Virus record (IMG/VR): IMGVR_UViG_2561511241_000004
Span: 1 to 40,856 of that record
Length of the DNA: 40,856 bases
Strand: one strand, 5' to 3'
Origin: a virus
Taxonomy: Duplodnaviria > Heunggongvirae > Uroviricota > Caudoviricetes
The notes below the pieces were generated by a model. It saw nothing but the letters and a program-made list of their open reading frames with translations. It made no database searches and was not told the origin of the DNA. Each line of letters begins with the position of its first letter. The stretch's first letter is position 1. Shown in pieces: positions 14,004 through 16,212 of the stretch. The translations under genes were made by a program, and so were the position numbers.

Positions 14004-14363
14004 ATGCGTATAGAGTTTGTTTTGCCTTATCCGCCGACGGTGAATACTTACTGGCGACGTCGTGGCAACACATATTTTGTATCAAAAGTCGGTGAGCGTT
14101 ATCGCCGTGATGTGGCACTAATTGTTCGCCAGCAGCGGTTGAAATTAAACCTGTCCGGAAGGCTGGCAATAAAAATTATTGCAGAGCCACCGGATAAGCG
14201 CCGCCGCGACCTGGACAATATCCTGAAGGCACCACTGGATGCGCTGACGCATGCCGGACTTCTCATAGACGACGAGCAGTTTGATGAAATCAATATTGTG
14301 CGCGGACTGCCTGTTCCTGGTGGTCGGCTGGGGATAAAAATCACAGAACTGGAGTGCGCATGA
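14004..14363 (+). CDS. rusA: Holliday junction resolvase RusA
   Basis: 119 aa; RRRDLDNxxK motif and overall similarity to E. coli RusA. Confidence 0.85.
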   Translation: MRIEFVLPYPPTVNTYWRRRGNTYFVSKVGERYRRDVALIVRQQRLKLNLSGRLAIKIIAEPPDKRRRDLDNILKAPLDALTHAGLLIDDEQFDEINIVRGLPVPGGRLGIKITELECA

Positions 14364-15049
14364 ATAACCAGTATTTACAGTTTGTGCGTGAGCAGCTCAT
14401 TATCGCTACCGCTGATTTGAGTGGGGCAACAAAAGGTCAGCTTGAAGCCTGGCAGGAGAATGCCATGTTTGATACAGGGCGTTACAGGCGTAAAAAAATC
14501 CGGTACCGCGATGAAGTGACTGGAAGAATGATAACGCGGGATAGTCCACCGATACCGGGAAAACAATCACTGGCGAAAGGCTCATCAATTGCTCTGGTAA
14601 GTCAGGTTGAGTTTTCGACATCATCATGGCGACGGGCAGTTCTGTCTCTTGAAGAACATCATAAAGCCTGGTTGTTGTGGTGTTACAGCGGGAGTATTTG
14701 TTGGGAATATCAGATCGCGATAACACAGTGGGCGTGGAATGAATTTAATACTCAATCCGGTACCAGAAAAATTGCAGGGAAAACGCAGGAACGCCTGAAA
14801 AAATTAATCTGGCTGGCGGCGCAGGCATTAAAAGCAGAACTTTTTGGTGGGGAAGGTTATGAATACCAGGAGCTGGCATTACTGGCGGGAGTGACAACTA
14901 AAAACTGGTCCAAAACATTTACTCGTCACTGGGTTGCAATGAAACACATTTTTCACCGACTTGATAGTGAGGCTTTATTGTTTGTAATGAGAACACGTTC
15001 AAAACAAAAGGCGGCATTTTCAAAGCAAAGTGTTGCAAAAGTAGATTGA
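14360..15049 (+). CDS. putative late-gene antiterminator (Q-like), assigned by position only
   Basis: ATGA overlap with the rusA stop; last gene before the terminator, tRNAs and lysis cassette; no motif-level confirmation. Confidence 0.4.
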   Translation: MNNQYLQFVREQLIIATADLSGATKGQLEAWQENAMFDTGRYRRKKIRYRDEVTGRMITRDSPPIPGKQSLAKGSSIALVSQVEFSTSSWRRAVLSLEEHHKAWLLWCYSGSICWEYQIAITQWAWNEFNTQSGTRKIAGKTQERLKKLIWLAAQALKAELFGGEGYEYQELALLAGVTTKNWSKTFTRHWVAMKHIFHRLDSEALLFVMRTRSKQKAAFSKQSVAKVD

Positions 15050-15112
15050 AAGGCATATATTTCATGCAAATCTGATATTTTGCCGATTTTGTACGTGATG
15101 GCAAAAGCAAAC

Positions 15113-15140
15113 AAAACCCGCCCACAAGCGGGTTTTTTGT
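15113..15140 (+). terminator. rho-independent terminator downstream of the Q-like gene
   Basis: acccgc-ccacaa-gcgggt followed by tttttt. Confidence 0.5.
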
Positions 15141-15243
15141 GCCACTTATCTCGGATAGACATGGTGAATGCGCTGGTGGAGGAGATAAGGGTGATTTTTG
15201 AATGCTTGCAACATTGATTTCGTAACGTTATTATCCTGCGCCC

Positions 15244-15319
15244 GGCCCTTTAGCTCAGTGGTGAGAGCGAGCGACTCATAATCGCCAGGTCGCTGGTTCA
15301 AATCCAGCAAGGGCCACCA
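15244..15319 (+). tRNA. tRNA with anticodon CAU (Ile2/Met type, ileX/ileZ-like)
   Basis: Clean cloverleaf: 7-bp acceptor stem, GCTC/GAGC D-stem, anticodon loop CUCAUAA, TTCAAAT T-loop, CCA end; very similar to E. coli ileX. Confidence 0.8.
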
Positions 15320-15320
15320 G

Positions 15321-15397
15321 CCGCCACTAGCTCATCAGGAAAGAACGTCAACCCTTTAAGTTGAGTGTGCGAGGTTCGAGTCCCCGGTGGCGGTCCA
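15321..15397 (+). tRNA. tRNA-like gene with unusual anticodon loop CCUUUAA (C at position 33); identity uncertain
   Basis: Perfect 7-bp acceptor stem, TCAAC/GTTGA anticodon stem, TTCGAGT T-loop, CCA end; mismatches in D- and T-stems. Confidence 0.5.
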
Positions 15398-15399
15398 GT

Positions 15400-15476
15400 G
15401 CCGACTTAGCTCAGTAGGCAGAGCAACTGACTTGTAATCAGTAGGTCACCAGTTCGATTCCGGTAGTCGGGCACCA
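15400..15476 (+). tRNA. tRNA-like gene, anticodon UGU (Thr type), with one extra G in the acceptor 3' strand; possible pseudogene
   Basis: GCTC/GAGC D-stem, ACTGA/TCAGT anticodon stem with loop CUUGUAA, TTCGATT T-loop; 3' strand AGTCGGGC where AGTCGGC would pair perfectly; resembles E. coli thrU. Confidence 0.5.
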
Positions 15477-15479
15477 TAT

Positions 15480-15554
15480 GCGGGCATCGTATAATGGCTA
15501 TTACCTCAGCCTTCCAAGCTGATGATGCGGGTTCGATTCCCGCTGCCCGCTCCA
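15480..15554 (+). tRNA. tRNA-Gly (anticodon UCC)
   Basis: Perfect acceptor stem GCGGGCA/TGCCCGC, anticodon loop CUUCCAA, TTCGATT T-loop, discriminator U plus CCA. Confidence 0.75.
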
Positions 15555-15822
15555 GCAGAGGACGATTGATACTAGGTTGTGTTAGGCACTGACACATTTT
15601 ATGTGGGGCGTTTTTCCTGACTCCTTACCTCGCCCTGTACTGTAAGGAGTGATATCGCTTGCAGCACCAGTGCCATTTTTTACGTCACCGGAATGGTGCA
15701 TTATTGGTAGAGATTTGCAATGTTTCTGGCAGGGGCCGATGATGCATCATTCTGGTGTTGTAAATAACACCATGACATTGAGATTAATCATATATTAAGC
15801 AAAACCTGGAAATGCATCCTTA

Positions 15823-15848
15823 ACCGCCTCTATCGGGCGGTTTTTTTT
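15823..15848 (+). terminator. tR'-like rho-independent terminator between the tRNA cluster and the lysis genes
   Basis: ccgcc-tctatcg-ggcgg followed by eight T; expected position for the late-operon terminator that Q would override. Confidence 0.55.
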
Positions 15849-16212
15849 ATTCTGAACTCAGAAAAGAATACACGGGCATTGATATTACCCGTGTGGCAAG
15901 GCCATGAAAGCTAATAATGAACTGAGCGCAAAAAAAGCGCGGCTGTCGGATTAACGCCGCGGGACAAAGTCCGTGAAGAAGAATAAGCATCAGTCTCCTC
16001 CAGGAGACGATTTGATATTACTAAGCTTTAAAAATGGTTTAAATCCCCCGGATTAACCTTAATTTCAGATAAGCTTTATTTCATTTTCTCCGAGCCACGT
16101 CAGGCGCACATCACATCAGATAACACCACATAAAAGGCATCTGCGGGTGTCTTTGATGGGGGTGTTTTTTACGGGTCGCTGGTGGCCCTTTTTTATTTAC
16201 AGGAGAAAAAGT

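Follow-up and report, generated by a model that had tools for sequence, protein, structure and literature searches.

Three families of the phage antiterminator Q are recognized, namely Q21 (PF06530), Q-lambda (PF03589), and Q82 (PF06323), which show no obvious sequence similarity to one another (PMC9388147). The late promoter pR′ of phage 82 carries an extended -10-like pause-inducing element, a GCC discriminator at +15 to +17, and an A/T-rich tract, with pauses at +25/+26 and a U at +25 (PMC5001585). A short RNA extending from pR′ to the terminator tR′, referred to as StxS, is known from Shiga-toxin (Stx) phages (PMC7547250), and IsrK is a short terminated RNA directly downstream of the Q82-family gene of Gifsy-1 (PMC4825925). 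In the annotation of the Stx phage 933W, the order of the late region is Q, pR′, qut, two terminators, the putative tRNA promoter pT, ileZ-argN-argO, a terminator "upstream of the stx genes", stx2AB, nanS-p, a hypothetical gene, S, and R. Here, the corresponding region was analyzed in a 40,856-nucleotide (nt) stretch of tailed-phage DNA (IMG/VR record IMGVR_UViG_2561511241_000004, positions 1 to 40,856; hereafter the window). The locus very probably serves as a late-gene switch that follows the phage-82 plan, in a lambdoid E. coli prophage of mosaic make-up. The original prediction for this region, a Stx-phage-like late layout of Q, terminator, tRNAs, terminator, slot, and lysis genes, agrees with the 933W order element by element. 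The elements of the proposed switch, and the second terminator that has to be weighed against it, are as follows.

14360..15049, + strand: Q antiterminator gene, Q82 family, 229 amino acids (aa) (PF06323, PHROG 304, 77.7% to phage 82 Q)
15033..15061, + strand: predicted pR′, with -35 TTGCAA, a 17-nt spacer, and -10 TATATT, overlapping the Q stop codon; start placed at A15068 (promoter scan)
15073..15092, + strand: predicted sigma70-dependent pause element of the 82 type (read from the sequence with the published 82 features)
15113..15138, + strand: likely tR′, an intrinsic terminator with a 9-bp stem and U-run (-16.8 kcal/mol, z=-3.8)
15822..15850, + strand: intrinsic terminator after the tRNA trailer, with stem 15822-15842 and T8 (-12 kcal/mol, z=-4.5)

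The open reading frame (ORF) at 14360-15049 matched PF06323 (Phage_antiter_Q) over positions 1-217 of the 220-position profile, with E=2e-89 and 299.4 bits (cut-off 25), and also matched PHROG 304 ("anti-termination protein Q-like"). Its product shares 77.7% aa identity with phage 82 Q (X92588) over 229/229 residues and 65.6% with AntQ of Gifsy-1. PF06323 was its only Pfam match; PF06530, the Q21 family that 933W Q matches with E=1.4e-50, was not matched, and a Protein Data Bank search found no sequence relative with a solved structure. The Q-like gene of the original prediction is thus present, and its Stx-phage-like character holds for its being an antiterminator but not for its family: by its profile match and identities, the window Q can be assigned to the phage-82 (Q82) family, a family other than that of 933W Q.

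Directly 3′ of the Q gene, a promoter, a pause element, and a terminator are all found at the level of sequence. Placing the start 7 nt after the -10 element gives A15068, and in the register transcribed from this base the pause element reads TG (+6, +7), a, TATTTT (+9 to +14), GCC (+15 to +17), GATTTTG, and U (+25, position 15092). Each published feature of 82 pR′ is therefore found in register within 15033-15092. Alignment with nine Q82-family phages from E. coli, Enterobacter, Klebsiella, and Cronobacter, whose Q proteins are 50-78% identical to the window Q, revealed that the pR′ -35 region, the spacing, the -10 element, and a TGATAT...GCC motif are kept 3′ of Q in seven of them, each time followed by a hairpin and a T-run. 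In the window, the terminator that had been expected after Q lies about 45 nt past the pause site, so that the predicted pR′ transcript would be about 70 nt long (15068 to about 15138); the 78-nt pR′ leader folds with z=-3.4.

Such a terminated RNA of about 70 nt, predicted directly 3′ of the window Q, resembles StxS and IsrK; the true IsrK begins 33 nt past the Gifsy-1 Q stop codon, a position equivalent to that of the window RNA. It matches the Rfam models only below threshold, at 15065-15138 (isrK, RF01394, 22.7 bits versus a gathering threshold of 50; isrJ, RF01393, 24.5 versus 37 bits).

Terminator-like sites are dense across 13900-16700, with 12 found by the terminator scan versus 3.4 +/- 1.9 in shuffled sequence, and the choice among them matters for the placement of tR′. 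The original prediction took the strong terminator at 15823-15848 as the functional tR′, with Q acting at a late promoter and Q-utilization site (qut) past the tRNA cluster. This terminator is indeed present, with a stem conserved and a loop variable among relatives; it stands directly before the cargo slot and must be read through by Q-modified polymerase in any case. Its identity as tR′ did not hold up, for it lies about 750 nt past the predicted pR′, the interval 15235-15822 yielded no promoter-like site in the promoter scan, and the sole match to an 82-type promoter and pause is that at 15033-15092 after Q, which is conserved in Q82-family phages. Moreover, the 933W equivalent is annotated apart from the terminators that follow pR′/qut. 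That reading is consequently regarded as highly improbable. Because the 82-type pR′ and pause element directly precede it and are conserved in relatives, the hairpin at 15113-15138 is likely the better candidate for tR′, with pR′ and the pause (qut) at 15033-15092, and the 15822-15850 element can be equated by position with the 933W terminator past the tRNAs and before stx rather than with tR′.

In the switch proposed here, a constitutive pR′ overlapping the end of Q would start transcription at about 15068. Polymerase would pause near +25 on the extended -10-like element and, without Q, would stop at tR′ (15113-15138) to free the RNA of about 70 nt. After induction, Q is expected to load onto the paused complex and yield a terminator-resistant polymerase, for which TGATATTTT and GCC (+15 to +17) are the elements expected to be needed. 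The modified polymerase would then pass tR′, the tRNA island, the 15822-15850 terminator, and two hairpins with U-runs in the holin leader to express the holin-holin-endolysin cassette and the morphogenesis genes. The tRNA island probably has its own promoter, pT, whose transcript in the lysogen would end at the 15822 terminator. We infer Q-dependent antitermination itself from the strong homology of Q and the conserved cis elements.

The island between tR′ and the second terminator contains these features.

15206..15234, + strand: putative tRNA promoter pT, with TTGCAA, a 17-nt spacer, and TATTAT, ending 9 nt before the first tRNA (promoter scan)
15244..15319, + strand: tRNA1, tRNA-Ile2 with anticodon CAU, ileZ (76/76 identical to 933W ileZ)
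15321..15397, + strand: tRNA2, derived from argN and degraded in structure, annotated tRNA-Lys; its anticodon loop is CCUUUAA (C33, UUU) (alignment to argN scaffolds)
15400..15476, + strand: tRNA3, tRNA-Thr(UGU) from host thrU, with a G inserted in the 3′ acceptor strand (comparison with K-12 thrU)
15480..15554, + strand: tRNA4, tRNA-Gly(UCC) (75/75 identical to K-12 glyT)

The four tandem tRNA-like genes claimed for 15244-15554 were confirmed by ARAGORN, which reported 15244-15319 (CAT), 15321-15397 (TTT), 15400-15472 (TGT), and 15480-15554 (TCC), and by the Rfam tRNA model, with scores of 72.5, 35.6, 60.3, and 64.9 bits in that order. The putative pT aligns with the 933W feature annotated "pT; putative tRNA promoter". 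The ARAGORN call of Met for the first gene is a literal reading of CAU and was set aside in favor of the ileZ identity and of the tRNA-Ile assignment given by the PGAP annotation in genomes that share about 99% identity over the locus. The second gene aligns with argN of 933W (UCG) and with a tRNA-Arg (UCU) of E. coli strain 504838, whose anticodon loops read CUUCGAA or CUUCUAA; it scores 35.6 bits versus 54.8-57.8 for these Arg versions and carries an A51:C63 mismatch in the T-stem as well as a G-to-A change, private to the window, that creates a mismatch in the D-stem. The third gene differs from K-12 thrU by one substitution and a 1-nt insertion, its terminal pair is flagged as non-standard by Rfam, and some relatives equal thrU exactly. 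At 15470-15476 the window reads AGTCGGGCACCA, while all relatives and host thrU read AGTCGGCACCA; the extra G is either a private inactivating mutation or a homopolymer sequencing error. The tRNA-Thr, being essentially host thrU, retains the UAAUCA cleavage site; tRNA2 differs at positions 39-41 but looks structurally degraded. In the tRNA-Gly of relatives, a compensatory U6-A67 pair replaces C6-G67.

The count of four, against three in Stx phages, was correct. Where 933W has ileZ-argN-argO, the window has no argO and a thrU/glyT-derived pair instead, and ARAGORN and the alignments found neither an argN with an arginine anticodon nor argO. The number is four rather than three through the joining of two pairs, one of ileZ and argN, which Stx phages and the O157:H7 prophage PPompW also have, and one derived from thrU and glyT; among the relatives examined the latter always accompanies a phiP27-type lysis module.

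Anticodons are switched on foreign scaffolds in several of these islands. The window carries UUU with C33 on an argN scaffold, the LT-IIb prophage SerU-LTIIb carries UCU on a thrU scaffold (L001 1122-1194), and an IMG/VR relative (L033) carries UCU on a glyT scaffold (tRNA-Arg(tct)); such tRNAs may be either functional or decaying. A 13-nt perfect inverted match was also noticed between the 3′ end of tRNA-Ile at 15309-15321 (AAGGGCCACCAGC, reaching into the bases past CCA) and 16178-16190 (GCTGGTGGCCCTT), the latter within the hairpin just 5′ of the holin ribosome-binding site. By a rough estimate, about 0.01 such matches are expected by chance in a 1.2-kb stretch, and this one could be a recombination relic at the tRNA genes. 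In the prophage ORFs, ACA, GGA, AGA, and AGG occur at 15.1, 14.4, 5.0, and 5.2 codons per thousand, which is roughly two or more times the host averages in E. coli K-12 codon tables. Such frequencies would fit a codon-supply role for the tRNA island.

Several points weigh against a working switch of the phage-82 type. Sequence and comparison give the family assignments and the order of the elements, show homology to 82, 933W, and phiP27, locate the junctions, and establish that toxin genes are absent. Transcription start, pausing, termination, and readthrough under Q are predicted features. The published 82 sequence X92588 stops at the Q stop codon, so that the likeness to 82 pR′ rests on published feature descriptions together with conservation in relatives, and among these relatives Gifsy-1 and SW-37 did not align over the promoter segment. 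The -10-like hexamer TATTTT agrees with the consensus at only 4/6 positions, and the isrK and isrJ scores lie far under their gathering thresholds. Finally, the window-private mutations in tRNA-Thr and tRNA2 could mean a decaying copy.

This last point leads to the proposal that the region is the remnant of a defective prophage whose late switch is dead in the window copy. Two defects private to the window, an additional G in the acceptor stem of tRNA-Thr and a D-stem mismatch in tRNA2, are what such decay would leave, as is the loss from the window of about 830 bp found past the endolysin in E. coli CV839-06. On the other hand, the ORFs for Q, both holins, the endolysin, HNH, terminase, head, and tail are intact, relatives have the promoter, pause element, and terminators in identical form, and deposited phage genome records exist for related phages. 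Furthermore, defects in the tRNAs would not stop antitermination, and the single-base insertion could be a sequencing error. Decay of the switch is thus considered improbable, and a late-gene switch on the phage-82 plan remains the preferred explanation. Regions of this type are well described, and near-identical copies are annotated in public E. coli genomes.

Downstream of the tRNA island, the following features lead to the lysis genes.

15585..15764, + strand: conserved structured RNA (fold z, 18 homologues, covariance model)
15851..16119, no strand: non-coding slot filler with a 16-codon ORF, a minus-strand hairpin, and the cargo junction 16113/16120 (PGAP, Pfam, PHROG)
16120..16212, + strand: conserved holin leader with two hairpins, each with a U-run (16122-16166 and 16173-16188), followed by the holin ribosome-binding site (fold, terminator scan)
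16213..17250, + strand: phiP27-type lysis cassette of holin 16213-16605, second holin 16595-16870, and M15 endolysin 16873-17250 (PF16931, PF05449, PF13539)

The comparisons with other prophages identify the interval from the tRNA island to 16120 as an exchangeable cargo (moron) slot, here without a protein gene. The absence of toxin cargo was upheld: tblastn with the A and B subunits of Stx2 and Stx2e against the whole window gave nothing better than E=1.3, PGAP places no coding sequence between tRNA-Gly and the holin in a RefSeq genome about 99% identical across the locus, and no homologue of stx, LT-II (LT-IIb), nanS-p, TerB, or DUF3927 was found anywhere in the window. The 16-codon ORF claimed as the sole ORF of the spacer exists at 15904-15954, although it is not alone, since ORFs of 47 aa (minus strand, 15847-15990) and 27 aa (15973-16056) were missed. 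None of these makes a credible protein cargo, as ORFs of 49, 47, 39, and 27 aa lack any Pfam or PHROG match and the 16-codon ORF reads ATG TAA in strain 504838; homologues of the 49-aa ORF differ by frame-shifting indels. The slot was accordingly empty only in the sense of having no protein gene, for it is filled with the structured RNA at 15585-15764 and about 270 bp of non-coding DNA. The latter block (15851-16119) is unconserved; it also occurs in strain 504838 and in one SerU-LTIIb copy. In an IMG/VR relative (L039) the slot is far shorter, with the holin just 326 nt past the start of the hairpin core motif.

At 15870-15894, the minus strand carries a terminator-like hairpin (-13.6 kcal/mol, z=-4.5) that points toward the plus-strand terminator 15822-15850; the 47-aa minus-strand ORF, which has no family match, overlaps this hairpin. 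The slots of phiP27 and vB_EcoS-689R5 likewise hold a minus-strand ORF, unrelated to that of the window.

A likeness of the whole spacer (15555-16212) to Stx-phage late regions was rejected. The alignment of 15600-16210 with such regions proposed in the original prediction gave phiP27 from 16120 and the Stx2k phage from 16169, and nothing with 933W. Homology to phiP27, 504838, and ETEC1732 restarts at 16120 in each.

The structured RNA comprises two parts. Domain 1 (15585-15674) is multi-branched and closed by the 7-bp stem GGCACUG/CAGUGCC, in which one pair varies among G:C, G:U, and A:U. It is followed by a G:U-rich hairpin of 33 pairs at 15679-15764, whose GGCAGGG bulge is invariant. Relative to shuffled sequence, the stretch of 270 nt from tRNA-Gly to the 15822 terminator folds with z=-5.7. 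Among 18 distinct versions, RNAalifold and pair counts revealed that 100% of cells in the 33-pair hairpin are paired, and sliding the partner columns lowers pairing to 30-55%. Thirteen of the pairs vary on one side, always via G:U, and three are compensatory. G:U accounts for about 21% of cells and A:C for none, from which it follows that constraint acts on the plus-strand RNA; the covariance model scores 102.9 bits on the plus strand versus 39.2 on the minus strand.

Among IMG/VR prophage contigs, 26 contain the core pattern; a megablast search of 5,426 complete E. coli genomes detected it in 31, where the region is unannotated save for a few "hypothetical protein" calls. In 31/31 loci examined it lies about 135 nt past the tRNA-Thr/tRNA-Gly pair, whose second tRNA carries the anticodon UCU in L033, and it precedes a phiP27-type holin wherever the contig reaches that far, with an 82- or a 933W-type Q and with or without TerB and DUF3927. 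The covariance model did not detect it in 933W, phiP27, Stx2k, Gifsy-1, or Klebsiella phages, and two scans of GTDB representative genomes gave nothing in the first and one unrelated chance match in the second. No Rfam family reached its gathering threshold in the slot, the structured RNA being unmatched. A CyaR match there (23.5 bits, E=0.18) was dismissed as a chance hit driven by the terminator. A switch between the long hairpin and a small GGUGUU/AACACC hairpin was also rejected, because the apparent compensatory change needs a different pairing register.

Whether the true cargo of the slot is non-coding, namely the RNA at 15585-15764, alone or together with the 15851-16119 block, as a functional payload or as an element for processing or stability of the late transcript, appears to us evenly balanced. 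The fold score, the retention of all 33 hairpin pairs in 18 homologues, the G:U-rich and A:C-free variation, and the plus-strand preference of the covariance model speak for it, as does a fixed linkage to the tRNA pair and lysis cassette while the upstream Q family and the intervening cargo vary. Conversely, a double compensatory change is seen in only 3/33 pairs, close kinship limits the phylogenetic signal, and absence from 933W, phiP27, Stx2k, Gifsy-1, and Klebsiella phages indicates that the RNA is not a general requirement of late operons. Non-coding cargo is in any case compatible with a switch on the phage-82 plan and does not compete with it. That the slot carries an undescribed functional structured RNA, co-inherited with the thrU/glyT-derived pair and the phiP27-type lysis cassette, is put forward tentatively, at somewhat under an even chance. 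If so, the RNA could be an RNase III-type processing site or a 5′ protective structure separating tRNA maturation from the lysis mRNA, or, alternatively, a stable RNA with a regulatory role that lysogens transcribe from pT. Our best guess is a processing site or stabilizing structure at the boundary of tRNA precursor and lysis mRNA, or a stable pT RNA in lysogens. Together with the anticodon-switched tRNAs, the structured RNA is the only item of the locus that might repay more work, as leads and not as results.

The holin leader (93 nt) folds at -29.1 kcal/mol (z=-4.2) and contains its terminators within 16122-16194. With this arrangement, expression of the lysis genes would continue to require Q-modified polymerase regardless of the cargo or cargo promoter upstream. 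The holin expected after the terminator starts at 16213 (PF16931), and the cassette is 94.5% identical in nucleotide sequence to phiP27 L28-L30 (16120-17243). An 84-aa ORF at 17193-17447 (+ strand) overlaps the end of the endolysin; its last 60 residues match PHROG 7528 (function unknown), it contains an LVGC lipobox-like motif, and it may be a spanin. The segment of about 830 bp missing here relative to CV839-06 lies between the endolysin and the HNH gene.

The window as a whole is ordered as integrase (572-1690), replication genes, DUF968 protein (12870-13991), RusA (14004-14363) and Q, the late region, HNH, terminase small and large subunits, head and tail genes, Lom, and tail-fibre assembly. 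In its early region and morphogenesis genes it shows 92-96% identity to induced E. coli phages, among them vB_EcoS-689R5, 640R1, and 813R8, and to the PPompW prophages found in O157:H7. For vB_EcoS-689R5, 640R1, and others, deposited phage genome records exist. The segment 15040-16260 occurs at about 99.3% identity in seven complete E. coli genomes, mostly from pig and cattle. Three further genes are possible accessory genes of the prophage: a predicted lipoprotein of 130 aa at 11973-12365 (+ strand), matching PHROG 16082 (function unknown) and with a faintly Cor-like N-terminus, a Lom/Ail outer-membrane protein at 35598-36197 (+ strand; PF06316, E=7e-127), and a SAM-methyltransferase-domain protein at the right end (39865-40533, - strand).

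Among named phages, phage 82 provides the model for the switch. It shares the Q protein (77.7% identical), a promoter overlapping the end of Q, the pause features as published (PMC5001585), and a terminator soon after, and it differs in that the window has a four-tRNA island and extra terminators between tR′ and the lysis genes. The order of elements is that of 933W, including a terminator between tRNAs and cargo, with ileZ 100% identical and the pT-ileZ-argN segment about 78-90% identical. Unlike the window, 933W has a PF06530 Q, argO in place of the thrU/glyT-derived tRNAs, and an S/R/Rz lysis cassette; its slot holds stx2AB, nanS-p, and the small RNAs STnc100 and AsxR, none of which is in the window. 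As for membership of the Shiga-toxin-converting phages, the late-region layout of 933W and phiP27 is present, while stxA and stxB are absent.

The PPompW prophages of E. coli O157:H7 and the induced phages vB_EcoS-689R5 and 606R7 are 96.5-97.7% identical to the window over RusA, Q, pR′/tR′, and the tRNA island. Homology to PPompW ends after tRNA2 (15397) and that to 689R5 after tRNA-Gly (15555), where a lambda-type S/R/Rz cassette follows, and both rejoin the window at the HNH gene; the window lysis module is therefore a phiP27-type replacement. E. coli 504838, ETEC1732, and SerU-LTIIb share the tRNA-Thr/tRNA-Gly pair, the structured RNA, the holin leader, and the lysis cassette with the window. 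In 504838, a cassette of about 680 bp with TerB-family and DUF3927 genes replaces 16114-16119, and ETEC1732 has the same two genes; SerU-LTIIb carries its toxin genes past the endolysin rather than before the holin.

The closest Stx comparison is phiP27 (Stx2e), which aligns over 15206-15465 at 78% and over 16120-17243 at 94.5% identity. It has an ileZ-led tRNA island, cargo that ends at the same junction before the conserved holin leader, and downstream an HNH gene and a terminase small subunit (PF05119), whose CV839-06 counterpart is called "P27 family" by PGAP. It differs in carrying ileZ-argO, stx2eAB, and the minus-strand ORF L27 where the window has tRNA-Gly and 565 bp of non-coding DNA, in having genes for a GIY-YIG nuclease, a TrmB-family regulator, and a DNA methyltransferase between Q and the tRNAs, and in lacking the structured RNA. 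Taken together, one junction (16120) has been reused, with no gene before it in the window, TerB and DUF3927 ending there in other prophages, and stx2e in phiP27, and it forms part of the background for the movement of toxin genes between prophages and for their control by Q.

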